This document shows positions 13,221 to 57,746 of a stretch of DNA of 64,000 nucleotides, one piece after another. How positions within the stretch are numbered: the first letter of the stretch is position 1; each line of letters begins with the position of its first letter. Position numbers and translations under genes: made by a program. The DNA comes from a virus. Below the pieces are notes generated by a model. That model was given only the letters and a program-made list of their open reading frames with translations. It ran no database searches and had not been told where the DNA came from. The stretch is taken from UHGV virus genome UHGV-1430915; one strand, 5' to 3'.

Positions 13221-14777
13221 TTAATTTTCCATGTTAGATATGGAATTATCTCTGGTCGATGACATCTTAGAAGTGCCGTTGCCAGTGGATCCTGCAGCCA
13301 TACCATCACCAGCCCTGCTGATGTCCTGGCCCAAGAGCTTCATCAGCTCTTCCTGATCCATGTCTTCGTCAAATCTTTCATCAAACCCGCCTACCTCAAG
13401 AATCTTATTAATTACTGCAGGAGTTTTTGGCAAGTAACCTACAGCACCGATCCTCTGGACAAACTTGGAGAAGCTCTCCATGTCCACTTCTTCAATCAGA
13501 CCAGGTTTCAGTTTAGGCATATCATCATCTTCAAGGATGATACCATTCAATGCCAGAAGCTGTGGAATAAGATCTTTATTGAAGGCCTCAGTGATAATAT
13601 CTATATCACGCTGAACAAAATGACCATGAATGGACTGTTTTGACTCAGACAGAGAGAAGGATCCGACGTTATCGTTACCGAGGTTAATAAATCCAGCACC
13701 GAAACGGTCAAGAATCGCCTTCTTACGGGCATCAATCAAATCTTTAGTAGAATACTGCTTACCCATACCATCAACCCCCTTCAGGGTCATGGAGTAAAGC
13801 TCTTTACCAGACTTATCTCTATCAGACGGAAGTATAAAGAAACTTTGCTCCCCACTATGGGCGTTTGCTGCGTCCAACATAAGATCTGCAACCATTCTCC
13901 CTTCCATCGAATTCGGGTCAATGCTGGCCTTGTTCAAAATATTGGAAGGAATTTTCAGCTCAAGCACACCACCAAGGTCTTTGGAGCAGCCAACAACCTC
14001 AAGGTTTTCAATCAAAACTTTCTCACGGAAAGATCTGTAGCAACCTATCATCGGTGACACACCTGCAGGATTAGATTCTGTTCCTGACAGAGTCATGAGC
14101 ATAAGCTTTTTAGCAGGGATGAAAATTTCAGGCTCATTAAAGCCTTTTGAAGGCATTGCAGCGAGAGGTCCAGCCCAGCGTGCATTCTGAGTGTTTAGAA
14201 ATGCATTAGGTGACTGATAAATACCTGTCAGTGTTCTGCTATTCTTGTCAAAGACAAACGGCTCTGATCTGGACAAACTGGCCTGTGGTCGGAATGCAAT
14301 TTTATCAATAAGAAGCATCCCGGCATATTTACCTTCTTTCTCTCTGCGGTATACTTTCTCAAACAGTGAAAAACCATACTCGTTAAAGGTAGCTGCGCTT
14401 CTTGCAATATCTCGAAGAGTTTGTTGGTTTGCCAAATTACGCAAAGAATACTCTATAAGCTCGGCGGCTTTCTTAGAGTCTTCACTTTTAACATTATAAA
14501 GGATCTTAAAATCATTGAATGCTTTCGTGATGAAAACATATTTTGTATCTAAGGCAGTAGCAACTGTGGAATCACATTTCATAGTCTCCACTGTGGCAAT
14601 CAGCTGAGGCCAACGCAATTCCTCAACCATCATAGATTGTGATTCTGCCATAATTTGGGAAAGTGCGCCAGAACCGATCTCACTCATACGAACATTATGA
14701 GTTGGTGCGCCTGCGTTCCCAGATTTATTCACAGTTTTGGCTGTGGCGTTGTGTTTCCTGCGGTTCTTTTTGGACAC
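13221..14777 (-). CDS. portal protein
   Basis: 518-aa ORF immediately downstream of terminase large subunit. Confidence 0.7.
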   Translation of the reverse strand: MSKKNRRKHNATAKTVNKSGNAGAPTHNVRMSEIGSGALSQIMAESQSMMVEELRWPQLIATVETMKCDSTVATALDTKYVFITKAFNDFKILYNVKSEDSKKAAELIEYSLRNLANQQTLRDIARSAATFNEYGFSLFEKVYRREKEGKYAGMLLIDKIAFRPQASLSRSEPFVFDKNSRTLTGIYQSPNAFLNTQNARWAGPLAAMPSKGFNEPEIFIPAKKLMLMTLSGTESNPAGVSPMIGCYRSFREKVLIENLEVVGCSKDLGGVLELKIPSNILNKASIDPNSMEGRMVADLMLDAANAHSGEQSFFILPSDRDKSGKELYSMTLKGVDGMGKQYSTKDLIDARKKAILDRFGAGFINLGNDNVGSFSLSESKQSIHGHFVQRDIDIITEAFNKDLIPQLLALNGIILEDDDMPKLKPGLIEEVDMESFSKFVQRIGAVGYLPKTPAVINKILEVGGFDERFDEDMDQEELMKLLGQDISRAGDGMAAGSTGNGTSKMSSTRDNSISNMEN

Positions 14778-47154: not shown

Positions 47155-47688
47155 ATGACTTGTGCTAGAAAACCTGACGAACAACGTAACGCCTATGATG
47201 AATATGTGACACCAGAGTGGTGTGCAGAAGGGTTGTATGACCTCATTCCGTTCCCAGAAGATTGGACCTATTTGGAGCCTTGCAGGAATAGCGCCTCAGG
47301 TGTGTTCTACTCCCGTATGCCGTTAGGATCTGCATGGGGAGAAATCCAAGAAGGTGTTGACTATCTGAATACAGAATACAACCATGTTGACTGTATTATC
47401 ACCAACCCGCCGTACAGCCTGGCTCGTGAGTTTGTGGACAAGGCGTTGAAAGATGCCGACGTAGTTATTATGCTTTTGCGTCTTAATTTTCTGGAAAGCA
47501 AGGCCAGATTTGAATGGTGGCTTGATAATGCCCCTACCACTGTGATCACAATATCTAAGCGTCCATCATTCCAATCGAATGGCAGAACTGACGGGCAAGC
47601 ATATGCATATTTTGTGTGGGACAAGAAGAACCGTTTAGACCTACCGCCATTTATGTGGTTGGCACCTCCGGAGGCAGACTTGAAATGA
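47155..47688 (+). CDS. Dam-like N6-adenine DNA methyltransferase (NPPY)
   Basis: YVTPEW N-terminal block and IITNPPYS catalytic motif, 177 aa. Confidence 0.6.
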   Translation: MTCARKPDEQRNAYDEYVTPEWCAEGLYDLIPFPEDWTYLEPCRNSASGVFYSRMPLGSAWGEIQEGVDYLNTEYNHVDCIITNPPYSLAREFVDKALKDADVVIMLLRLNFLESKARFEWWLDNAPTTVITISKRPSFQSNGRTDGQAYAYFVWDKKNRLDLPPFMWLAPPEADLK

Positions 47689-47969
47689 AAATGAGTGCTA
47701 AGGACAAGTTGCACCAGTTAGCGCTAAAACGTCCTGTAACTCTCCCTGACGAGCTTAACTCCATTTATGATGCGATTGTAGGGGAGATACAAAATAAGGC
47801 GTTAGCAGGCTTTCTGGGATGCGGATTTTCGATAAATCTTCCATCACACCTCTCAGACTACTTACCACACATCGTTGGGGATTTGAGGGCAGGAGGTCTG
47901 CAGGTGGATGTTGTTGGCATCTCCCCGGAGAAAAATAACACAGTTGCCTACTTGACAGTGACCTGGTAG
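47685..47969 (+). CDS. hypothetical protein
   Basis: ATGA overlap with methyltransferase stop. Confidence 0.4.
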   Translation: MKMSAKDKLHQLALKRPVTLPDELNSIYDAIVGEIQNKALAGFLGCGFSINLPSHLSDYLPHIVGDLRAGGLQVDVVGISPEKNNTVAYLTVTW

Positions 47970-48004
47970 TAGTGTATTTTGTTTTCAACAAGAGGGGGTC
48001 ATCT

Positions 48005-48244
48005 ATGTATAAGTCATTTTCAATCTACTCAAGACAGACAAAACACTACACAGAGATTCTGATCACTCAGAAAAAATCTGTGGAAGGTGAGTGGGAATAT
48101 CATCATAAAATGTTGCGTCCAGACTGGGTTTTTGATAGGCTTATTGCTATGATCCCTCTTGGAGAAGTATACCCTCTGACAGGTCATAGGGATGCTTGGG
48201 ATTTAATTGACTATATAGATTCATTTAAGGAGCCTAGATTATGA
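48005..48244 (+). CDS. hypothetical protein
   Basis: GAGGGGG RBS before ATG. Confidence 0.4.
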   Translation: MYKSFSIYSRQTKHYTEILITQKKSVEGEWEYHHKMLRPDWVFDRLIAMIPLGEVYPLTGHRDAWDLIDYIDSFKEPRL

Positions 48245-48639
48245 AGATTGAGATTACTGAAGAAGGTAAGAAAGTCTCTGGTAACTATGCAACAGTTATC
48301 CGTGATGTAATGTTCGAAGTCACTAAGATTGGCACATCCAAGGTTGGTCAAACGGTGAGTGTGCAAGGTAATATCACCTCAGGAGAGAAGATATTCATCG
48401 TAATAAAAGGCCAGGACCCTGTAGAAGGGACAGTTGGACGTGGCGGATACCTGTGTATCTCTGAAGAGCCTCGCATGCTAGTTGCTGATAACTCTACAGG
48501 TAAAAAGCGGGTATGTAACACGGACGAGGTGATGATTATCTATCCAGTCAACCCGGATGATCCGGCAACATGGATTGTGGGAAATGAAATCTTCTCTTTA
48601 GAAGAGTTATCCTTCCCAGCTCCGCGATCTGTTCAGTAA
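48241..48639 (+). CDS. hypothetical protein
   Basis: 132-aa ORF, MKIEIT start. Confidence 0.45.
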   Translation: MKIEITEEGKKVSGNYATVIRDVMFEVTKIGTSKVGQTVSVQGNITSGEKIFIVIKGQDPVEGTVGRGGYLCISEEPRMLVADNSTGKKRVCNTDEVMIIYPVNPDDPATWIVGNEIFSLEELSFPAPRSVQ

Positions 48640-48678
48640 TAATTTATCTTACCAGGGACGGTAAAAGTAGGAGGTAGC

Positions 48679-48912
48679 ATGAAAGTTAAATTTCTTACAG
48701 ATTTAGGGTACCCTTCCTTGGTTGACTGTGTTGGTAAAATTGTGGAAGCAAAACGGCTATCTGCAAACGATAATGTTGTCATGGTTAAGGGAAAAGATTT
48801 ACTAGCTGCAGGTGCAGAGTCTGGCAGGATCTCTCCTGACTATACGTATTACCTGTCTTTAAGTAATCTACCAGAACGAGGCGGCAAAGGCCTTGAAGTT
48901 GTGGAGGAGTGA
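48679..48912 (+). CDS. small protein, MKVK paralog family
   Basis: Shares MKVK..D..Y.G....GK.....KG.DL.AAGA pattern with ORFs at 52236, 52453, 54590. Confidence 0.5.
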   Translation: MKVKFLTDLGYPSLVDCVGKIVEAKRLSANDNVVMVKGKDLLAAGAESGRISPDYTYYLSLSNLPERGGKGLEVVEE

Positions 48913-49454
48913 CAGGTATGCTTCTGATTAACTGGGAAGACCTCTATGGGGACAAAGACCCTGTTGCGTTTGTTGATCGTAGGTGGAGGTACACTGAAGA
49001 ACAACTGGCTGCAAAAAATTTAACTGCAAAACGCAGAAAGATCATCCAGTGCAAGTACAAATACGCACAGTTTGCTGCAAAAGTGTCTCCACAAATCGAG
49101 AGTTTTGTACTTAAATTGTATGACGAGTACCTCAAATTCAAATTGGATTTTGTACAGGTATACCGTGCACAGGTACGTCCAGATACCAACATCTGTAGAT
49201 GGAAGGTTGTTTGTGATGGTAAAGATTTGCCGCTCAGTTTGACAATTGAGTGGCGTTGGGGGTATCATGAGTGCGGTTTGTATGATATTTGGGATGTCAT
49301 TGTAGATCCTGCTAAGTACCTGAACACAGAGGAGCTGGAATATATCAATAAGGTTATTCTAGATATGTTTTTCAGCTACACCCATGAAAACTCTGAGAAA
49401 GAACGGGATAATTTTCTTGACACCCTCGGCAACCACCTGCAGTGTACAATTTAA
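48909..49454 (+). CDS. hypothetical protein
   Basis: 181-aa ORF. Confidence 0.45.
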   Translation: MTGMLLINWEDLYGDKDPVAFVDRRWRYTEEQLAAKNLTAKRRKIIQCKYKYAQFAAKVSPQIESFVLKLYDEYLKFKLDFVQVYRAQVRPDTNICRWKVVCDGKDLPLSLTIEWRWGYHECGLYDIWDVIVDPAKYLNTEELEYINKVILDMFFSYTHENSEKERDNFLDTLGNHLQCTI

Positions 49455-49472
49455 CCTACAAAGGAGGAGCCA

Positions 49473-49709
49473 ATGAGTATAGATGCTGTGCTGATAGGTT
49501 ACCTGGTAGTAGCTGTTATAACAGCAGTAATCTTGGCAGGTATATGCATCGTGTCTACCCGAAGGGTGAAGTTTGATGATTTTATCACCATCATCACTGC
49601 TGCGCCCTTTTGGCCTGTTGTTATCTTCATCGTAATAATGTGCCTAGTTGATTACCACAAGAATATCCGTAAGGAGAAAAAGGAGAGTAGGGATGGATAC
49701 CGCACCTAA
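49473..49709 (+). CDS. small two-transmembrane protein (holin-like)
   Basis: Two hydrophobic helices and charged C-terminal tail KNIRKEKKESRDGYRT; 78 aa. Confidence 0.35.
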   Translation: MSIDAVLIGYLVVAVITAVILAGICIVSTRRVKFDDFITIITAAPFWPVVIFIVIMCLVDYHKNIRKEKKESRDGYRT

Positions 49710-49928
49710 AACTGTTTATACTGTTCTTAAAGAGATTGCATTCTACGCAGATCTTAGCCGGGCACCTTTATGGGAAAAGAATATGTATTTAAAATGGTGC
49801 GTGAAATTAGGGGGGCCTTCTAATGTTTCAAGCCATGTTTATTGAAATGCTCTCTGGGGTATTACTGCTGGTAGCCATTTTAGGTGGCGCGGCGCTGATG
49901 TATAATTATCTTGAAAAAGGGGACAGTA

Positions 49929-50114
49929 ATGACAAAAAATAAATCCTTAGAACAGGCTGAAAACCTTCTCCACGAGCTGGTAAAGGAGTGGAAAGTTGAA
50001 TACTCAGATTTTAATGCAAGAGAGGGGGAAGATTATTGGCCTACGGAGCGCTCAGAGGGAGAGTGGTATCAAGATTTCATAGAATGGCTATATCAGACGT
50101 GCGATGAGGGGTGA
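49929..50114 (+). CDS. hypothetical protein
   Basis: Start at ATG MTKNK; acidic. Confidence 0.35.
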   Translation: MTKNKSLEQAENLLHELVKEWKVEYSDFNAREGEDYWPTERSEGEWYQDFIEWLYQTCDEG

Positions 50115-50572
50115 CGATGTTTGTTAAATATGTAAAAACGTGCCTCAACAACCTTGGTAGAGAGCATTGGTACACACTGCTTGAAAAAGGAGAAATTTTA
50201 ACAAAATCTGGAAAGATAACTTTGATACCTTTGGACGATAAAGACCCGTCACTACTTGTCATAGATGATTACGTTACAGGTGTGTCGTACGAGGTATCTG
50301 TGGAGAGGTTAATACGCAGATCTGGAGGTCCTTATGACCGAAGAGAGTATGTTTTCGATTCCGTTACAGAGAAGGAAGATCCGTCTCTAATGTTTAGGAT
50401 GGTAATCAGGGATATGAAATCATCTATAAATAGGATCGTAAAGGACATTAAGGAGCCTTTTAGGGTAAAAGTTAAGAAGTTTTTTGATTCTAAGATCAAC
50501 ATACTTGCAGTTGTGCTAGGCGTAATTCAACTTCTGTTAATTTTGCACTATTTTGAACTGTTGTTTAAGTAA
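50111..50572 (+). CDS. hypothetical protein with C-terminal hydrophobic helix
   Basis: 153-aa ORF. Confidence 0.4.
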   Translation: MTMFVKYVKTCLNNLGREHWYTLLEKGEILTKSGKITLIPLDDKDPSLLVIDDYVTGVSYEVSVERLIRRSGGPYDRREYVFDSVTEKEDPSLMFRMVIRDMKSSINRIVKDIKEPFRVKVKKFFDSKINILAVVLGVIQLLLILHYFELLFK

Positions 50573-50632
50573 TGTGCATTATGGCACAAAGGATGTGCCA
50601 TAACTAAATAAACTAAGAAAGAGGTAGAGAGA

Positions 50633-50980
50633 ATGTCAAAGATTAAATCGATATTAATGTGGGTGGCTGTTGTAGCTTTTGTAGGATACTGGACTTGGGA
50701 AACTGAATTAAAAGATATTGGGTATACCAGTCTTGAGAGTAAGGCGTGCATTGGCATAACCGATGCATTCAGGCAGAATGCTATGGATCACGAATGTGTC
50801 GATGCAGATATAGATGAGAAACTGTCTAAGGACAAAGATTTTTACCATGGTCATGCCTTGCTTGATAGTGGTGATACTGTAGAATTCTGGTCGTGGTTCC
50901 GTGAAGATGGGACAATAAAGACAGCAGTAAAGATTTCCAACAAAGAGTTGATGCTGTTGCAGCAGAAGGAGGTGCAATGA
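50633..50980 (+). CDS. hypothetical membrane-anchored protein
   Basis: N-terminal TM helix; RBS AAGAAAGAGG. Confidence 0.45.
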   Translation: MSKIKSILMWVAVVAFVGYWTWETELKDIGYTSLESKACIGITDAFRQNAMDHECVDADIDEKLSKDKDFYHGHALLDSGDTVEFWSWFREDGTIKTAVKISNKELMLLQQKEVQ

Positions 50981-51264
50981 TCTGGATATCCTACGCTGAT
51001 GGCACTATGCTGTATACTGCAGGTACTAGATATGAAGTTAAGGAGGACGATAAAAAATTTATCGTAAAAACATTTGACAAGGACGACAACCTTTTGCTAG
51101 AATTGACTTACAAGGTTGGGGATGTATCTAGCATCCAATTGGATTGCGGTCATAAAGATAACCCGCTCAAGAAACCTGGGGTAGGTAAAGCTTCAGAAGA
51201 ACGCCTGTCTCGTATTGCAGAAAGCGTTTCTGCACAAAAATCTAAAAAGGGGACTAGAAAATGA
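50977..51264 (+). CDS. hypothetical protein
   Basis: 95-aa ORF, overlapping start/stop. Confidence 0.4.
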   Translation: MIWISYADGTMLYTAGTRYEVKEDDKKFIVKTFDKDDNLLLELTYKVGDVSSIQLDCGHKDNPLKKPGVGKASEERLSRIAESVSAQKSKKGTRK

Positions 51265-51455
51265 AAAACTTACATTTTAACACTTATTACTACAACACTT
51301 TGAATGATTTGTATTATATTGTTCGAAGTAAAAATCCTGAAACAGTCCTATTCTGCCGCGAACCTTTCAAAGGAGAGGAAGTGGAGTCTGAGATGAATGT
51401 TAGCCAGATTACCTCTTTGTTGCTCTCAGGTGCAATGGAAGAAGCAATATTCTAA
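51261..51455 (+). CDS. hypothetical protein
   Basis: 64-aa ORF. Confidence 0.35.
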   Translation: MKNLHFNTYYYNTLNDLYYIVRSKNPETVLFCREPFKGEEVESEMNVSQITSLLLSGAMEEAIF

Positions 51456-51473
51456 ACCAGGCGGGAGGGTTTT

Positions 51474-51662
51474 ATGAAGCACTATTGTCTGTCTGGTAGG
51501 ATGGGGGTGGATTGTGATTGGGTTTTCTTAAAACTTGTCAGCGTTCGAGAGTCCATCCCAGAGGAAGAGCAAGAAAGCGAGCTGATGTCATGGATCAACC
51601 ATTACGGTAACACTTTTCGGCATGTTAAGGTAGAAGAGTTGCCAAGCGAGGCTGAATTATGA
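51474..51662 (+). CDS. hypothetical protein
   Basis: 62-aa ORF. Confidence 0.35.
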   Translation: MKHYCLSGRMGVDCDWVFLKLVSVRESIPEEEQESELMSWINHYGNTFRHVKVEELPSEAEL

Positions 51663-51955
51663 AACTTTTTGAGTGGTTTAAAAAGTTTAAATATAAAGCT
51701 GTAGCCATCGTGCCGTGGTCCATTCAGTGGGTTGATGAAGGTGGTCTACCGATACCTGGTGACAAAGATACTGGGTACTGGATTATGATGGAGAACGGGT
51801 TTGGAAAGCGAAAGTATACGTGCACAAACTCTACTCGATCTGCACTTAATAGAGTGCCTGGTTACAAACTTATGGTTGTGTGGAAAATGTCAGGCGTGCC
51901 TCCAGCCAATGCTCAATTTCTTACTGACAATCCGACCACGGTAGAGGGAGATTGA
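51659..51955 (+). CDS. hypothetical protein
   Basis: 98-aa ORF. Confidence 0.4.
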   Translation: MKLFEWFKKFKYKAVAIVPWSIQWVDEGGLPIPGDKDTGYWIMMENGFGKRKYTCTNSTRSALNRVPGYKLMVVWKMSGVPPANAQFLTDNPTTVEGD

Positions 51956-52239
51956 TAATGAAAAAGATTAACAGTAGTGAAGTAGAGTTTAAACTTGTCG
52001 GAAAAGGCACTTACTGGGAAGTTCGTCAAAAGGTATATTTGTTCGGTCTTATTCCCTACTGGTCTAAATTCTACTGGGGAGCTAACGAGTTGGGAAGATA
52101 CGCCACCAAATCAATGGCACTTATTGGTATAGCAGAGTACATTGCAGCCCGAGACAGGGTTGGAACCACTTATTACTACACTGCTGACGATATTCGTAAC
52201 AGTGTTTACGTCCCACAACCACCTGATGGAGACCGTTGA
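51952..52239 (+). CDS. hypothetical protein
   Basis: 95-aa ORF. Confidence 0.4.
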   Translation: MIMKKINSSEVEFKLVGKGTYWEVRQKVYLFGLIPYWSKFYWGANELGRYATKSMALIGIAEYIAARDRVGTTYYYTADDIRNSVYVPQPPDGDR

Positions 52240-52463
52240 TGAAAGTTAAAGTTTTAGATTCAAGCTTCTATATTGGTCAGGAGCCTTTAGTAGGAAAAGT
52301 GTTTACTGCTGTCCCTAACGAAGATTACCCTGACCTTTTAAAAATAAAAGGAGCAGATCTTATTGCCGCTGGTGCATCTCAGGAATGCTTTGACAGTCAG
52401 TGGACCTATAACTTTGCCCTAGGTGAGGATGTAGAGGTAGTGGAGGACGATCATGAAGGTTAA
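52236..52463 (+). CDS. small protein, MKVK paralog family
   Basis: Paralog of 48679, 52453, 54590. Confidence 0.5.
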   Translation: MMKVKVLDSSFYIGQEPLVGKVFTAVPNEDYPDLLKIKGADLIAAGASQECFDSQWTYNFALGEDVEVVEDDHEG

Positions 52464-52707
52464 AATTCTTGATTCTAACGTCTACTTGGGACAATCCTTC
52501 CTGAATGGAAAGGTCGTTCCTGCGGTATACTTTGAAGGGTTGCCGTGGGATGATCCTGTGCGGCAACATCACAGTTATGTAGGCCACAACGTGGTGTTTA
52601 TCTTGGGATCAGACCTGATCACCGCTGGTGCACCTGAATATTATTTCGGGGAAGAGTCCTACTATGCCTTTGGGGTAGGGTCAGATGCAGATATTGTAGA
52701 GCTGTGA
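52453..52707 (+). CDS. small protein, MKVK paralog family
   Basis: Paralog of 52236. Confidence 0.5.
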   Translation: MKVKILDSNVYLGQSFLNGKVVPAVYFEGLPWDDPVRQHHSYVGHNVVFILGSDLITAGAPEYYFGEESYYAFGVGSDADIVEL

Positions 52708-52719
52708 TGGGTAACCGTT

Positions 52720-53109
52720 GTGAAAAATAAACTGTTTAAAGTTACAATGAAAATTCGCGGAGCTTGGAGCGTAAAGCAAGGGCGCATCCCAGAGTTTGAG
52801 AAAGACTTCTACGTAGTCTCCACCTCTGAAGAGGCTGCATGCTGGCAGGCTGGATATGCCTATGCAAGAACCTGGTACGAAGGATACCAGACTGGAGGCT
52901 ATGACGGAGAAATTGTCAGCAAGGGTGTGGAAGAAATTAATGTGTTGACAAGTGAAAAAGTTTTTGTTATAGTGCATCCTGATTCTAGAGTGAAGCATTA
53001 CTGGAATGCCAGAACAAAAACCTGGACACCGTTTGCAGATTCTGCTACACCGCTTTTAAACCAGAAAGCTCTTGACTCTGCCCCAAGCTATGTGTTGAAG
53101 AAAAGATAA
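52720..53109 (+). CDS. hypothetical protein, paralog of 54922-55317
   Basis: Shares VHPDSRVKHYWNARTKTWTP versus MRHPHSNIAYYWDVLNNEWTP and other blocks with 54922 ORF. Confidence 0.5.
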   Translation: MKNKLFKVTMKIRGAWSVKQGRIPEFEKDFYVVSTSEEAACWQAGYAYARTWYEGYQTGGYDGEIVSKGVEEINVLTSEKVFVIVHPDSRVKHYWNARTKTWTPFADSATPLLNQKALDSAPSYVLKKR

Positions 53110-53193
53110 GCTGAAATAGTGGGGTACTTACATGATGGATTTAGTTTTGGACACTGATAACACCGAATCGTTTAAAAAGATGGTGTAATAAGC

Positions 53194-53421
53194 ATGGACC
53201 AACCCTGCCATGCCAAGATTGACTCAAAATGGACCTACAAGTTTGACGGTGAGATCTTCGCAAATGATGAGAAGGTCGTGGATGCTGTAGCCATTTTAAA
53301 CGCTTTAGGGTATGACCCTGTGAACTCATTGATCAAGGATCCTGTTGAGTTTGCAGAGTATGTTCGTAAAATGGCAGATCTTGCAGTAGATATTTTAAAA
53401 ACTATCGACGACAAGCTGTAA
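53194..53421 (+). CDS. hypothetical protein
   Basis: 75-aa ORF. Confidence 0.4.
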   Translation: MDQPCHAKIDSKWTYKFDGEIFANDEKVVDAVAILNALGYDPVNSLIKDPVEFAEYVRKMADLAVDILKTIDDKL

Positions 53422-53427
53422 AAACTG

Positions 53428-53456
53428 TTGACACAACACTTGATCTTTAGTATCAT
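53428..53456 (+). promoter_or_regulatory. sigma70-like promoter TTGACA-N17-TATCAT
   Basis: Upstream of HPF-like gene; followed by 5-prime UTR hairpin at 53465-53485. Confidence 0.5.
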
Positions 53457-53503
53457 TATTTTCAAAGAGGGTTTGGTTCCCTCTTCTTTAAAAGGAGCAC
53501 GTT

Positions 53504-53821
53504 ATGCAGATTGAAATCACTGGCAACGTAGATATCACTGAAGGTATGGTGTCTTTCATTTCCCACAAAATGTCCAAACTGGAGCGTTTGCACCCATCTG
53601 CCAACTATGCACGTGTGAGTGTAAAAGTTGAAAATGATCACCAGGAAGTTATGGCTTTTATTTTTGACAATTCTGGGAAAGAAGTTATCGCCAAAGCTAA
53701 AGGTAGCGATGCTTACGAGGCAACTGACCGTATGGTGGATGTTGCAGCACGCCAGTTGGCTAAATGCGGTGGAAAGAAAGGTAAGGGAAAAGGTAAAGTA
53801 AAGATTGACTTTTTAGATTAA
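53504..53821 (+). CDS. ribosome hibernation promoting factor / RaiA (YfiA) family homolog
   Basis: Colinear match to E. coli HPF: MQIEITGNVDITEGM...KLERL...VSVKVE...GKEVIAKAKGSDAYEATDRMVDVAARQLAK versus MQLNITGNNVEITEAL...KLEQY...VVLKVE...GGEIHASAEGQDMYAAIDGLIDKLARQLTK. Confidence 0.75.
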   Translation: MQIEITGNVDITEGMVSFISHKMSKLERLHPSANYARVSVKVENDHQEVMAFIFDNSGKEVIAKAKGSDAYEATDRMVDVAARQLAKCGGKKGKGKGKVKIDFLD

Positions 53822-53959
53822 GGTGCTACAATGGGCATGATTAAGAAATTAGTCCCAAATGTAGAGATTGCATGCTTTGAAATTATGTTTGCAATCGCAG
53901 TTGTAGTTAATGTGTTAGGTTACGGCTATTAATTATCAAATAATTGAGGAGACCTCTAA

Positions 53960-54229
53960 ATGAAAATTAAATTATTCAAAACTGAGCTGGCAGACAAAAA
54001 CTGCGGACTGGTTGAAGGCATGATCGTTGAAGCACAACCAGTTGACTACATGAAGGTGGTTCGTGATGCCCTGGGTGAAGGTTTTGATCTGATGGAGCCA
54101 GCTCTGCGAGAAGATGTCATCGAGATGGCTAAAAAGCACACACCGGAAGGTTTGGTAGTGTTTGTTGCACCAGGTAACGGGGAAGAGTTGATTGTAACTC
54201 CGGATGTGTATGAGGTTGTAGAAGAGTAA
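53960..54229 (+). CDS. hypothetical small acidic protein
   Basis: 89-aa ORF. Confidence 0.45.
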   Translation: MKIKLFKTELADKNCGLVEGMIVEAQPVDYMKVVRDALGEGFDLMEPALREDVIEMAKKHTPEGLVVFVAPGNGEELIVTPDVYEVVEE

Positions 54230-54321
54230 TCCTGCTTGGGTTGGAATACTTTCCTCGACAAGAAAGGTTTATAATTATTTGTGGGAAAGGAATCCCCATC
54301 TCTTACCAGAGGTGATACTAT

Positions 54322-54585
54322 ATGATTGTTTATTTTAAAACTTCAGGTGGATACCCTGATTCTCAAAGCTTGATTGGAAAAACGTGCACAGCATACTCCC
54401 CTCTTGATGAGGAGGTAAGTGGTATCCTACGAGATATGTATCGGATTGATCCACAAGAAGCTTTTGATCAAAACCTTGTATTTGTCAAGGGATCAGACAT
54501 AAAGTCTTTGGGGGCATTCCCTGAAGCAGATGATGATGCTGTTTATTCGTTTATGACACCTTTTGAAGCTATGGTTGTGGGGTAA
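54322..54585 (+). CDS. small protein, related to MKVK family
   Basis: VFVKGSDIKSLGAF resembles family core. Confidence 0.45.
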   Translation: MIVYFKTSGGYPDSQSLIGKTCTAYSPLDEEVSGILRDMYRIDPQEAFDQNLVFVKGSDIKSLGAFPEADDDAVYSFMTPFEAMVVG

Positions 54586-54589
54586 GAAT

Positions 54590-54922
54590 ATGAAAGTACG
54601 CTTTATTGGTGAAACAATTCCTGTGCATCTCCGGTCTCCTGAAGACTCTGCAGATCTTGCATCTCAAAAGGCGAGAGGGTATGATAAGAAAGTGATCTCA
54701 AGCAATGTAGAGCTTGAGGCCACCAGTCTGCCTGACCCAGCTGCATTCTTCAATCATTATGGCTACTATTTTAGCAATCTGATGAATATTGGTGAGCTTG
54801 TGTTTATTAGTGGTGGAGAGATAGTTAGCAAGCTTGGTGGAGATCCGGATATCTTTCATGAAACCTGTCCTTTTGCATTTGTGGTGGGTTCAGATGTGGA
54901 AGTTATTGAGGAGGTTCGGTAA
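54590..54922 (+). CDS. small protein, MKVK paralog family
   Basis: Start at MKVRFIG. Confidence 0.45.
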   Translation: MKVRFIGETIPVHLRSPEDSADLASQKARGYDKKVISSNVELEATSLPDPAAFFNHYGYYFSNLMNIGELVFISGGEIVSKLGGDPDIFHETCPFAFVVGSDVEVIEEVR

Positions 54923-55317
54923 TGGTAAGTCTATACCGTGTTGAGTATAGCTCGGATACTGTATACAACGTAAGAAGCAAAGATCGCAGTGATAGAGTGC
55001 AAGAAATGTATGTTCTTGCAGATAGTCCGTTATCTGCAGCGTTCAAGGCAGGAGCTCTTGCATCTCGTTGGAAATTTGAGGGTGGATCTTTCTATGAAGA
55101 AACCCTCGAAGATTCTGTTGTTATTTCTTCTGTAGAGGTTTCAACCGACTACGAAGGGAAAAAGTTCGTAATGCGGCACCCACACAGCAACATTGCGTAC
55201 TACTGGGATGTTCTGAACAATGAGTGGACCCCTGATCTTCAGAAGGCCACTGTTCTAACCCCATTCCTGGCAGATAAGTTCCCACCAGAAGGTAATTTAT
55301 CTGCACTGTTTCAGTAA
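54922..55317 (+). CDS. hypothetical protein, paralog of 52720-53109
   Basis: See 52720 entry. Confidence 0.5.
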   Translation: MVSLYRVEYSSDTVYNVRSKDRSDRVQEMYVLADSPLSAAFKAGALASRWKFEGGSFYEETLEDSVVISSVEVSTDYEGKKFVMRHPHSNIAYYWDVLNNEWTPDLQKATVLTPFLADKFPPEGNLSALFQ

Positions 55318-55335
55318 TTTTATGCCACACAGGTG

Positions 55336-55364
55336 TTGACAACACCAACCCTGTGTGCAATAAT
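55336..55364 (+). promoter_or_regulatory. sigma70-like promoter with flanking inverted repeat CACACAGG / CCTGTGTG
   Basis: TTGACA at 55336-55341; 8-bp perfect inverted repeat 55326-55333 and 55350-55357 brackets the -35. Confidence 0.4.
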
Positions 55365-55396
55365 ACCTTCATCTTAACAAGATAGGAGACCGATTG

Positions 55397-55654
55397 ATGA
55401 AGATTAAATTGAAAAACCTTGAAACGGCAGAGATTCAGGAAGGTGTTGATTTCCGTTCTAAAGATGGAGACATCCTAGAGGCGAATGTCCCGACATATAA
55501 GTTGATTAAAGGTTTTGGCAACGTTCCGGAGGAGGATATTACAGACATTCTTATGATGTTGATCCTTGACGGGACTGTGTTTGTAGGTGAAGGTGAGAAC
55601 GCTATTGCAATCCCGAGCCATTTTTATGAAGTAGTTGACGAAGAGGTGCTGTAA
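55397..55654 (+). CDS. hypothetical small acidic protein
   Basis: AGGAGA RBS; MKIKLKN start. Confidence 0.45.
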   Translation: MKIKLKNLETAEIQEGVDFRSKDGDILEANVPTYKLIKGFGNVPEEDITDILMMLILDGTVFVGEGENAIAIPSHFYEVVDEEVL

Positions 55655-56005
55655 ATGAAAGTAGAGATCACAGGTTTTGATATGAATGCGGTTCCGGAAG
55701 ATATTTTAGCTAAACTCCCGGAAGGTTTTGGTAACGGTGTTGTGGTTGATGCTGTTCCTCCTACCAAAGACATCCTGCTGCAGTATGGTGTGGCAGAGGA
55801 AGATGTTGATAAAGTTCTTACAATGATGGCAATCGACCGTGTTGTCGTTGTTAAAGGTCTTGAAGGTTTTGATAACGATCCTCTGATTATTCGTGGTGAT
55901 GACTATCGTATCATCGACAACGAAGGTCAGGGGTTCTACGAACCTTCTGCTGAAGATGTTCTTAACTTACTACTGGAAGCAGGTACCGTAGAGGAGGCAG
56001 AATAA
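55655..56005 (+). CDS. hypothetical small acidic protein
   Basis: 116-aa ORF. Confidence 0.45.
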   Translation: MKVEITGFDMNAVPEDILAKLPEGFGNGVVVDAVPPTKDILLQYGVAEEDVDKVLTMMAIDRVVVVKGLEGFDNDPLIIRGDDYRIIDNEGQGFYEPSAEDVLNLLLEAGTVEEAE

Positions 56006-56334
56006 TGAAAATTGATCCGTTACTGAAGGCTCGTGCAGAAAAAGCATACACTATTAAGCTGACCTCTCTGGTTCCTACTTGTCATCCAGATGTAGGTTGG
56101 CCTGAAGGTCTGGTAGAGGGGACTGTAACAGCCGCATATCTCCCTAACATCAAATACCTCATGGAGATCTTGGAGATGGATGAGGAAACGGCAGAACAGT
56201 TCCAGTTAGACATGAAGCAAAGTGGGACTCTGGTTATTCACGGGTGGTATAATACTAAAGATGCAGAAGATCCCCTGGTAACTTCTAATCTGGCATATGA
56301 GATCTTAGGGCCTTTGAACTTGGGGGAAGACTAA
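56005..56334 (+). CDS. hypothetical protein
   Basis: 109-aa ORF. Confidence 0.45.
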   Translation: MKIDPLLKARAEKAYTIKLTSLVPTCHPDVGWPEGLVEGTVTAAYLPNIKYLMEILEMDEETAEQFQLDMKQSGTLVIHGWYNTKDAEDPLVTSNLAYEILGPLNLGED

Positions 56335-56621
56335 TGAAAGATTTGGTTAAGATCAAGATTAAAGACACCAATGGAGAACTCAGCCATTTTGGAATTAACG
56401 ATGGTGACGAGCTGATCGCCCACCTGCCTACCAAGGAAGTTGTAAGCAAAGCGGTTGCCGGAGAAGAAGATGCAATGCAGGCTGCAGGTGTGGATGAAAA
56501 CTATGTAGCAATGTGTATGTGCCGAGATCAGGTTGTTCTGTATAAAGCGTATCGACCAAATGGAGCACCTGAGTGGCTTGTTTTCCGACCCGAAGGATAT
56601 GAAATTTTAGAGACGCTATGA
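56334..56621 (+). CDS. hypothetical protein
   Basis: 95-aa ORF. Confidence 0.45.
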   Translation: MKDLVKIKIKDTNGELSHFGINDGDELIAHLPTKEVVSKAVAGEEDAMQAAGVDENYVAMCMCRDQVVLYKAYRPNGAPEWLVFRPEGYEILETL

Positions 56622-56710
56622 TAAATCTTGCCAAGGTTGCAACGGCACTGTTAATTATTTGCTGGATAGTGACCTTGGCACTATGTCTTGTATTTCATTA
56701 AGGGGGCTGT

Positions 56711-56974
56711 ATGAACATCTTGGTGTGGGTTGTAGCAGTAGCGTTTGTTGCGTGCCTCTCTTGTTGGGTTGCTGTGAGGATTTCTATAGCCACTCTTCGG
56801 AAATTAGGGTTCTCAGAGTGGGATATTAATATCCTTTCTTTTCGCAATGAGACAATCTCAGCCGCCCTGCTGTGTAAGAAGTTTAAGTGGGAACCTTGTG
56901 AGGTCATGAACTATCTAAGAACAGGAGATATTCCTGAGAGATTTAAAAAAGTTCTTGACGGCAAAGACAAATGA
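56711..56974 (+). CDS. hypothetical membrane-anchored protein
   Basis: N-terminal hydrophobic helix. Confidence 0.4.
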   Translation: MNILVWVVAVAFVACLSCWVAVRISIATLRKLGFSEWDINILSFRNETISAALLCKKFKWEPCEVMNYLRTGDIPERFKKVLDGKDK

Positions 56975-57129
56975 TAGTATAGTGACTAACAAGAGGTGAG
57001 GAATGACTGATTTTACTGAAGCTTTAATGATGGCCTTATCTGTTTTAGCGCTATCGGTGTGTTTTGGGGCGTTATTCACATCTCTGGTTAAAGTTTTACA
57101 TACCATATTCTCACCCAAGGAGCACAGTA

Positions 57130-57715: not shown

Positions 57716-57720
57716 CAACG

Positions 57721-57746
57721 AAGAGGGGTCTTGGCCCCTCTTTTTT
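57721..57746 (+). terminator. intrinsic terminator
   Basis: AAGAGGGG-tcttgg-CCCCTCTT stem followed by TTTTAC. Confidence 0.55.

Follow-up and report, generated by a model that had tools for sequence, protein, structure and literature searches.

Three families of paralogous small genes

The window analysed here is the whole 64,000-nucleotide (nt) stretch of UHGV virus genome UHGV-1430915, and between 48.7 and 56.6 kb it carries twelve plus-strand genes that fall into three separate paralogous families, named here A (five members), B (two members) and C (five members). The window comes from a virulent rV5-like coliphage (genus Vequintavirus): positions 48000-57000 are 96% identical to Escherichia phage ECP26 and match 122 phage records at 80-99% identity, nearly all of them rV5-like coliphages, and the complete block is present in 116 of the 122. 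Orthologues of the twelve genes are annotated as "hypothetical protein" in more than 110 Vequintavirus genomes. As shown in Table 1, the order A-A-B occurs twice (groups 1 and 2), four C genes stand in a tandem array, and one A gene, 48679, lies alone 3.3 kb upstream of the other A genes. A Shine-Dalgarno sequence precedes each start.

Table 1. Genes of families A, B and C and other features of the region, with their counterparts in phage rV5
Feature	Position	Strand	Product or sequence	rV5 counterpart	Evidence and setting
A member 1	48679..48912	+	77 amino acids (aa)	ORF127 (orthologue)	phrog_5009 E 2.5e-36; leave-one-out hidden Markov model (HMM) E 5.9e-9; hhalign 99.3% to 52239 group
A member 2	52239..52463	+	74 aa	ORF140	phrog_5009 E 1.7e-38; group 1, first gene; modelled protein
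A member 3	52453..52707	+	84 aa	ORF141	phrog_5009 E 3.7e-32; BLASTP 2e-13 to 52236; hhalign 99.4%; group 1, second gene; 13-residue loop insertion
B member 1 (B1)	52720..53109	+	129 aa, isoelectric point (pI) 9.3	ORF142	phrog_7379 E 9.5e-70; phmmer 3e-10 to 54922; group 1, third gene
A member 4	54322..54585	+	87 aa	ORF147	phrog_13920; weak phrog_5009 1.6e-4; leave-one-out HMM E 4e-6; group 2, first gene; 19-residue loop insertion
A member 5	54590..54922	+	110 aa	ORF148	leave-one-out HMM E 6.2e-7; hhalign 95.4% to 52453 group; group 2, second gene; ~45-residue loop insertion
B member 2 (B2)	54922..55317	+	131 aa, pI 4.85	ORF149	phrog_7379 E 4.2e-66; hhalign 98.6% to B1 group; group 2, third gene
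C member 1	53960..54229	+	89 aa	ORF146	hhalign 92.2% to 55397 group, 85.9% to 56334 group; leave-one-out HMM E 4.2e-4, top hit; between HPF gene and group 2
C member 2	55397..55654	+	85 aa	ORF150	phmmer 3e-4 to 55655; leave-one-out HMM E 3.7e-8; opens the four-gene tandem array
C member 3	55655..56005	+	116 aa, net charge -18	ORF151	hhalign 87.3% to 55397 group, 86.8% to 56005 group; leave-one-out HMM E 2.4e-9
C member 4	56005..56334	+	109 aa	ORF152	hhalign 86.8% to 55655 group; leave-one-out HMM E 1.2e-4
C member 5	56334..56621	+	95 aa	split into ORF153/154 in the rV5 record	hhalign 85.9% to 53960 group; leave-one-out HMM E 9.9e-6
HPF/RaiA-like ribosome hibernation factor gene	53504..53821	+			PF02482 E 1.8e-12; RaiA/HPF annotation in relatives
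Predicted sigma70-type promoter	53428..53456	+	TTGACA-17-TATCAT	offset equals that of annotated promoter P144	consensus scan 11/12; 48 nt 5' of HPF gene
Predicted sigma70-type promoter, extended -10	55336..55364	+	TTGACA-17-AATAAT	offset equals that of P150	consensus scan 11/12 with TG; 33 nt 5' of C array
Predicted intrinsic terminator	57720..57743	+	10-bp stem, then T run	annotated rho-independent terminator after ORF158	ends the transcription unit 3' of C array

A sequence-only reading of the window had proposed that four small open reading frames (ORFs) share a core motif, that two larger ORFs are paralogs and that the order small-small-large is repeated. The ORFs that it named all exist on the plus strand, with the starts of two adjusted. 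The first gene of group 1 starts at the ATG at 52239 and not at the TTG at 52236, which is how it is annotated in relatives, with a Shine-Dalgarno sequence; the second gene of group 2 is the annotated ATG at 54590, likewise preceded by a Shine-Dalgarno sequence, within a longer mechanical ORF (54563-54922). In the all-against-all BLASTP comparison of the 455 six-frame window ORFs of at least 40 aa, the sole cluster of significant pairs joined 52453 with 52236 (2e-13), 48679 with 52236 (1e-6), 52453 with 54563 (1e-3) and 52720 with 54922 (1e-6), and phmmer gave 3e-10 for the last pair. The pairwise similarity expected of the proposed paralogs was thus found, and the two larger ORFs, which also have phrog_7379 in common, are paralogous. 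A profile built from the three closest small ORFs retrieved 54322 at 4.9e-6 and 54590 at 6e-5, with nothing else among the window ORFs below 0.7. BLASTP, profiles and hhalign all bear out the four small ORFs as one family, to which 54322, listed by the earlier reading in the second cassette and left out of the family, is added as the fifth member. The agreement of 54590 with the motif as written in that reading lies mostly in the C-terminal half and the MKV start (46-84 aligned with 69-108).

The earlier reading also missed family C. Its five members have the pattern MKIKL...EG...G.vv.A..P...EED...dg.VV...YE[IV] in common, and single-sequence searches among them were weak except for 55397 against 55655 (phmmer 3e-4). 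Each of 13 orthologue groups was therefore given its own profile, built with sequences from two database searches and two divergent relatives, and all were compared with hhalign. The probabilities were 76-99% within A, with the exception of 54322 against 54590 at 22%, each of which is linked to other A groups; 98.6% within B; and 92, 87, 87, 86 and 68% within C. Between families the maximum was 9%. As a non-circular test of membership in A and C, HMMs were trained with one orthologue group left out. In every run the omitted A or C member was the best non-training ORF of the window's 455 (E 1e-17 to 4e-4), and the next ORF scored 0.23 or worse.

The PHROGs database holds the families in part. 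Window proteins belong to PHROGs families over their full length with E values of 1e-32 to 1e-74: phrog_5009 takes in 48679, 52239 and 52453, phrog_7379 takes in the two larger proteins, and 54322 and 54590 are filed in separate families; 54590 had no match to the phrog_5009 HMM. In all, A corresponds to phrog_5009, 13920 and 13661, B to phrog_7379 and C to phrog_11868, 12359 and 12155, none of which has a known function. PHROGs thus divides A among three families and C among three or more, whereas the link of 54322 and 54590 to phrog_5009 and the paralogy of the C genes come from the present analysis.

Two extensions of the families were considered and rejected. A and C both have an MK[VI]K start and an acidic [YV]E[VI][VI]E end, and a C member was the best non-member match in three of the five A leave-one-out runs (E 0.23-0.44), which is only a hint of kinship; they were kept as separate families because the whole-family hhalign probability was only 2.6%, with 9.1% for the best link between groups. 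The ORF at 48241-48639 was tried as a further C member on the sole signal of a phmmer value of 0.0037 from one orthologue, and hhalign (1.8-2.9%) rejects it.

Selection on the family genes

Comparison with the relative FFH2 shows how the genes evolve within the genus. Synonymous divergence (dS) is 0.2-0.4 in nine of the twelve members, and the ratio of nonsynonymous to synonymous divergence (dN/dS) is 0.01-0.14 in all nine, with 0.01 for B1, 0.02 for B2 and 0.04 for 54590. The other three are too close to FFH2 and add little to this estimate: 52239 and 52453 are identical in protein and nearly so in DNA (dS 0.02 and 0), and 48679 has a dS of 0.10 and a dN/dS of 0.06. The low ratios therefore indicate strong purifying selection within the genus. 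The sequence-only reading had called these genes fast-evolving, which does not hold at this level, where the proteins are 89-100% identical to those of FFH2, and holds only between genus-level lineages. In two divergent, uncultivated relatives, the contigs L003 and L004 described below, the Clp-like protease is 62-68% and the methyltransferase 72-85% identical, and the family proteins are 27-75% identical with variable copy number.

The genes are closely packed. Stop and start overlap by 11 nt at 52239/52453 and by 1 nt each at 54590/54922, 55655/56005 and 56005/56334, and the four genes of the C tandem array appear to be translationally coupled.

Two small differences from relatives were seen near the end of B1. 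Four nt (GGGT) that FFH2 and rV5 have are missing from the window near 53093, which changes the end of B1 from ...SYGVVEEKLN to ...SYVLKKR. In all 39 of the full-length tblastn matches listed (117 records had such a match) the alignment ends at B1 residue 124, and because of this the deletion looks private to this genome or is a sequencing error. A further single nt is missing near 53186, which truncates the next gene, the ORF143 orthologue, at its N-terminus, so that 53194-53421 encodes 75 aa versus 96 aa.

Duplication history

We found that the repeated gene order is not random. When 34 genes (5 A, 2 B, 5 C and 22 other) were shuffled, A-A-B arose twice in a fraction of 1.1e-4 of 1,000,000 permutations, and a run of four C genes had a probability of 3e-3. 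The repeated order (52239/52453/52720 and 54322/54590/54922) had been read as a segmental duplication, and some form of block duplication is well supported, since A-A-B twice is unlikely by chance. The copied block may or may not have had three genes: the two groups have no DNA similarity, and the two A genes of group 1 are the closest to each other.

Two divergent relatives date the duplications. L004, a 128-kb contig from ENA, carries an orthologue of each of the five A and five C genes and of B2, with an unrelated 96-aa ORF at the position of B1. Of family A, L003, a 139-kb Joint Genome Institute (JGI) contig (Ga0245122_100114), retains only the 48679-type gene; it also has four C genes and a B1-type gene, in front of which stand two ORFs without a match to the A profile. 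Because of these orthologue sets, all A paralogues and both B lineages predate the split from these divergent, vequintavirus-like lineages. The families expanded through old tandem and block duplications, and their copy number has since changed by loss, which differs between lineages. In L003, an IS605 OrfB/TnpB (Cas12f-like) gene (13532-14644) was also observed, inserted among the small genes 3' of the C array.

Two histories fit the sequences about equally well: a duplication of an A-B pair with separate tandem duplications of A in each group, or a block duplication with gene conversion. In its most specific form, the second history is a single segmental duplication of a ready-made three-gene A-A-B cassette, followed by gene conversion between the A genes of group 1, and we would give it somewhat less than an even chance. 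Besides the non-random order, this history draws on the best cross-group link being one between genes in the same position (52453-54590, hhalign score 47.8, versus 37.5 for 52239-54590). A search for DNA repeats linking the two A-A-B groups, which would be the sign of a recent segmental duplication, found none; the sole trace at the DNA level is a patch of about 30 nt with 80% identity over the conserved motif of the adjacent genes 52239 and 52453. The cassette history also draws on this patch and on two metagenome contigs (L008 and L009), in which a 256-nt deletion at the motif merges 52239 and 52453 into one 70-aa chimera. Against it, 52239 and 52453 score 107 with each other, far closer than either is to the group 2 genes (31-48 for cross-group A pairs), 54322 has no preferred positional partner (32.1 versus 31.1), and a neighbour-joining tree pairs the tandem A neighbours, with a bootstrap support of only 50-52%. 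The merged form was found in none of the 12 best-matching isolate genomes, in each of which the query gave two aligned pieces that together span 687 nt. The collapsed A-A gene of the Logan contigs is possible and unproven, and could be an assembly collapse. Identity across groups is similar for the two families, about 30% for A and 26-28% for B1 versus B2.

Three chimeric proteins (P0014, P0017 and P0027) were weighed as signs that recombination is still going on. They are not relied on, as the collapsed A-A gene, which occurs only in Logan assemblies, and the prophage/vequintavirus hybrid of short contigs described below may both be assembly artefacts.

Distribution of the families

All three families are lineage-restricted, with a very narrow spread. 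Clustering at 90% identity among 5.8 billion proteins gave 35 clusters for A, 54 for C and 6 for B, and an exhaustive HMM search for B returned six matches only among 1.84 billion representatives. One of these six, a 1900-aa repeat protein (P0095), is regarded as spurious, its repeated "...RYYWTVRA..." strand resembling the B motif "YYWD". By tblastn against 50,697 phage genomes, A and B are restricted to 118 Vequintavirus records with the exception of one A gene, described next, and a scan of one genome per prokaryotic species found nothing for family A. Among the GenBank records that match the region, 18 in the range MG065635-MG065690 are named "Campylobacter phage" (16 with host C. jejuni) and are about 94% identical to rV5-like coliphages over the 9-kb region, so that their host assignment looks odd. 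A 657-nt ENA contig (P0084) encodes a fusion of an N-terminal DUF7399 (PF24132, E 2.9e-11) to a C-terminal half that is a 56005-type C protein; either recombination or faulty assembly may have produced it.

The exception is a gene of mEp021-type phages. It encodes a 75-aa protein that is 45% identical to 48679 over its full length (BLASTP 4e-16), and it groups with the 48679 clade with 96% bootstrap support in a neighbour-joining tree. The gene was found in the mEp021 group of temperate coliphages (hypothetical protein mEp021_40), in 13 of 5,426 complete E. coli genomes and in about 46 IMG/VR contigs of 25-77 kb. mEp021_40 of the mEpimmI temperate coliphages is thus a true A homologue, like 48679 in its full length; unlike the A genes of the window, it is present in single copy, in a late-operon setting between the Q antiterminator and holin genes of a temperate siphovirus. 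The mEp021-type phages have no further gene in common with the block, and the paper on the mEpimmI phages does not mention mEp021_40. The presence of A in two unrelated coliphage lineages therefore points to horizontal transfer of a single small gene. In two short, low-coverage metagenome contigs (L010, at 203-340, and L011), we also saw a hybrid A gene whose first part is 91% identical to the mEp021-type gene and whose remainder is 91% identical to window positions 52344-53600, joined at a common stretch of 32 nt over the GADLIAAGA motif. It may be a real recombination between temperate and virulent phages or a chimeric assembly.

Predicted structures and protein properties

Family A is predicted with high confidence to adopt an SH3-like small beta-barrel. 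The AlphaFold2 model of 52239, made from a 20-sequence alignment, has a mean predicted local distance difference test score (pLDDT) of 89.1 and a predicted template modelling score (pTM) of 0.75, and consists of five strands and a short helix, the latter being the conserved G-x-D-L-I-x-A-G-A. When the family alignment is placed on the model, the insertions of 52453, 54322 and 54590 (Table 1) all fall in the loop between strands 2 and 3, and the other members have 0 inserted residues. Family A is thus predicted to be a conserved scaffold with one variable loop. In a Foldseek search of predicted viral structures (BFVD), the model matched the Shigella phage CM1 orthologue of 54322 with a template modelling (TM) score of 0.79, as well as many uncharacterised small phage proteins and, weakly, T4-like proteins (Merlin and RB49, E 0.01-0.06). 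Three BFVD entries with neighbouring accessions (A0A514CYE9, A0A514CYF5 and A0A514CYG1) resemble the A barrel with TM scores of up to 0.85, which suggests that another phage carries its own array of this small barrel fold.

The predicted five-stranded barrel places A beside the SH3 and KOW folds, such as the Spt5/NusG KOW domain, PsaE, the C-terminal domain of retroviral integrase and eukaryotic SH3. At the sequence level, no Pfam family, SH3/KOW or other, matched any A member at E up to 1, and a profile search of PDB sequences gave nothing below E 0.029.

The B proteins are predicted to be alpha+beta proteins of about 130 aa. The best AlphaFold2 model has a pLDDT of 74.4 and a pTM of 0.71, and the other four models scored 53-62. 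The N-terminal two-thirds of this moderately confident model resemble the folds of eL20/LX and PurS at 9-20% identity; B differs from both in an extra, conserved C-terminal hairpin (HPxS...YYWD...WTP), and it has no sequence match to any family. The B proteins do not combine a sequence match to eL20/LX or PurS with the basic, RNA-binding character of eL20. The hairpin was also tried as a WW domain and rejected, since no Pfam match appeared at E up to 1 and the first signature tryptophan is absent from the alignment.

Most of the proteins are acidic. A pI of 4.0-4.7 and a net charge of -7 to -18 are found in all five C proteins and in four of the A proteins; the fifth A protein, 48679, is near neutral (pI 5.4, net charge -1). 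None of the family proteins is among the rV5 virion proteins reported by mass spectrometry, and we take them to be small, cytoplasmic proteins.

Genome context and transcription signals

In the annotation of FFH2, the region is the far end of a long plus-strand block that opens with DNA ligase, exonuclease, DNA polymerase, thymidylate synthase and ribonucleotide reductases; PhoH, a Clp-protease-like gene and a DNA methyltransferase come next, and about 40 short genes annotated as "hypothetical" follow. GC skew is positive across the span of this block. According to the rV5 genome paper, the span (genes 82-163) is one of four transcription units, and sigma70-type promoters are scattered genome-wide; paralogues or duplications are not mentioned there. 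Two predicted promoters at the same offsets as rV5 P144 and P150 lie in the region of the families (Table 1). The first would drive the HPF gene, C member 1 and A-A-B group 2, and the second precedes the C array. The HPF gene, which encodes a short hibernation factor, sits between the two A-A-B groups, behind the first of these promoters, and is absent from the divergent relative L003. The sequence-only reading had placed the families in an early region, which is plausible given that they lie on the same strand as, and 3' of, the replication and nucleotide-metabolism genes and close to these P144- and P150-like predicted promoters.

Upstream of the families, a 117-aa ORF (47616-47969) shares 73 nt, read in another frame, with the end of the DNA methyltransferase gene (47155-47688); the FFH2 annotation includes both. 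The ORF has a dN/dS of 0.26, the second highest in the block after 0.39 (49473-49709).

Possible functions

The reading that we favour is that the family proteins are accessory proteins that may bind host or defence targets, the paralogues covering different ones. It is drawn from the genes being small, non-structural, lineage-restricted and mostly acidic, from the selection that acts on them, from the host-type promoters and from the conserved scaffold with a variable loop, and we put its chance at even or a little below. On this reading, accessory host-interaction proteins would be produced from host-type promoters alongside the replication-phase genes, each family would provide a conserved scaffold, and the variable loop and the surface would direct its paralogues to different host or defence targets.

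Several results weigh against it. Pfam, NCBIfam, PADLOC and PDB sequence searches with the A, B and C proteins gave no usable match, and no homologue of a known anti-defence or host-takeover protein was found in Pfam, NCBIfam, the function-bearing PHROGs, PADLOC or PDB, so that the host-takeover or anti-defence role to which the sequence-only reading pointed stays conjectural. We found no paper on these genes, and literature searches on paralogues, expression timing and anti-defence screens had no relevant result; the likeness of ORF142 to a Listeria phage A118 protein that the old rV5 annotation mentions did not show up in any search here. Proteins in an active arms race do not usually look as these do within the genus, nearly identical and under strong purifying selection. 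In addition, the B model is only moderately confident.

A broader and unlikely version would join the three families and the phage HPF in one coordinated host-takeover arsenal. Here the barrels with swappable loops (A, and perhaps C as a helix-bearing version) would be a repertoire of binders, each paralogue neutralising a different host factor or defence protein, possibly associated with the ribosome, and the scaffold would be mobile enough for exchange between a virulent myovirus and the mEp021-type temperate phages.

The neighbouring HPF gene also raises a rather improbable alternative, namely that A (KOW-like), B (eL20/LX-like) and HPF act jointly on the host ribosome or on translation factors. 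The HPF/RaiA homologue at 53504-53821 and its promoter in common with C member 1 and A-A-B group 2 would fit such a module, as would the KOW-like and eL20-like fold matches, but these folds are generic. The A proteins, with a pI of 4.1-5.4 (4.1-4.7 in four of the five), are unlike the RNA-binding KOW and ribosomal proteins, Pfam gave no KOW or ribosomal match with the threshold relaxed to E 1, L003 has members of A, B and C but no HPF, and the mEp021-type phages have A alone.

We consider equally improbable an obligate two-component unit of A and B, such as an inhibitor and its partner or a toxin-antitoxin-like pair, that was duplicated whole and so fixed the A-A-B order. The repeated order (P ~1e-4), the tightly packed or overlapping genes, which suggest translational coupling, and the similar cross-group divergence of A and B would all be expected of such a unit. 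The two families come apart, however, in the relatives: L004 keeps both group 1 A genes with the unrelated 96-aa ORF in place of B1, L003 has a B1-type gene with no recognisable A genes alongside, and both 48679 and the mEp021-type gene stand with no B nearby; furthermore, no toxin or antitoxin family was matched.

Finally, a reading of the ORFs as functionless, whether as decaying duplicates or as mechanical ORFs, is very improbable and is already contradicted by the dN/dS values: although no database family of known function was matched and two small indels damage the B1 C-terminus and the ORF143 orthologue, dN/dS is 0.01-0.14 with substantial dS in most members, each gene has a Shine-Dalgarno sequence ahead of its start, more than 110 genomes retain the genes, orthologues at 27-75% identity survive in divergent lineages, and A has a confident predicted fold.

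Significance

Large virulent phages of the T4, T5 and SPO1 types are well known to carry arrays of paralogous small accessory genes, where the genes are short, tightly packed, lineage-restricted, near replication genes and tandem-expanded, as here. The families of the window have no sequence match to the array families of those phages, and the only fold matches to such phages are weak ones, to uncharacterised small proteins of T4-like phages. The three families are thus a real but fairly ordinary large-phage feature, and their description is tidy, unsurprising comparative genomics. The genes were already public as hypothetical proteins, with their paralogy partly implicit in PHROGs; what is added here is the complete membership of A, the third family C, the age of the families and their lineage-specific loss, the A gene in common with mEp021-type phages, and the predicted SH3-like scaffold with its variable loop.

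The result is of modest interest pending a target or phenotype. Vequintaviruses find wide use in the biocontrol of E. coli O157 and in phage-therapy collections, and about 40 small genes 3' of their replication module are unannotated. Twelve of these genes now reduce to three families, one with a confidently predicted scaffold, which shrinks the experimental problem accordingly, and the strand 2-3 loop of A is a concrete variable element. Should the paralogues prove to differ in the host or defence targets that they bind, the block would give a compact, natural case of a diversified repertoire of binders in a phage.

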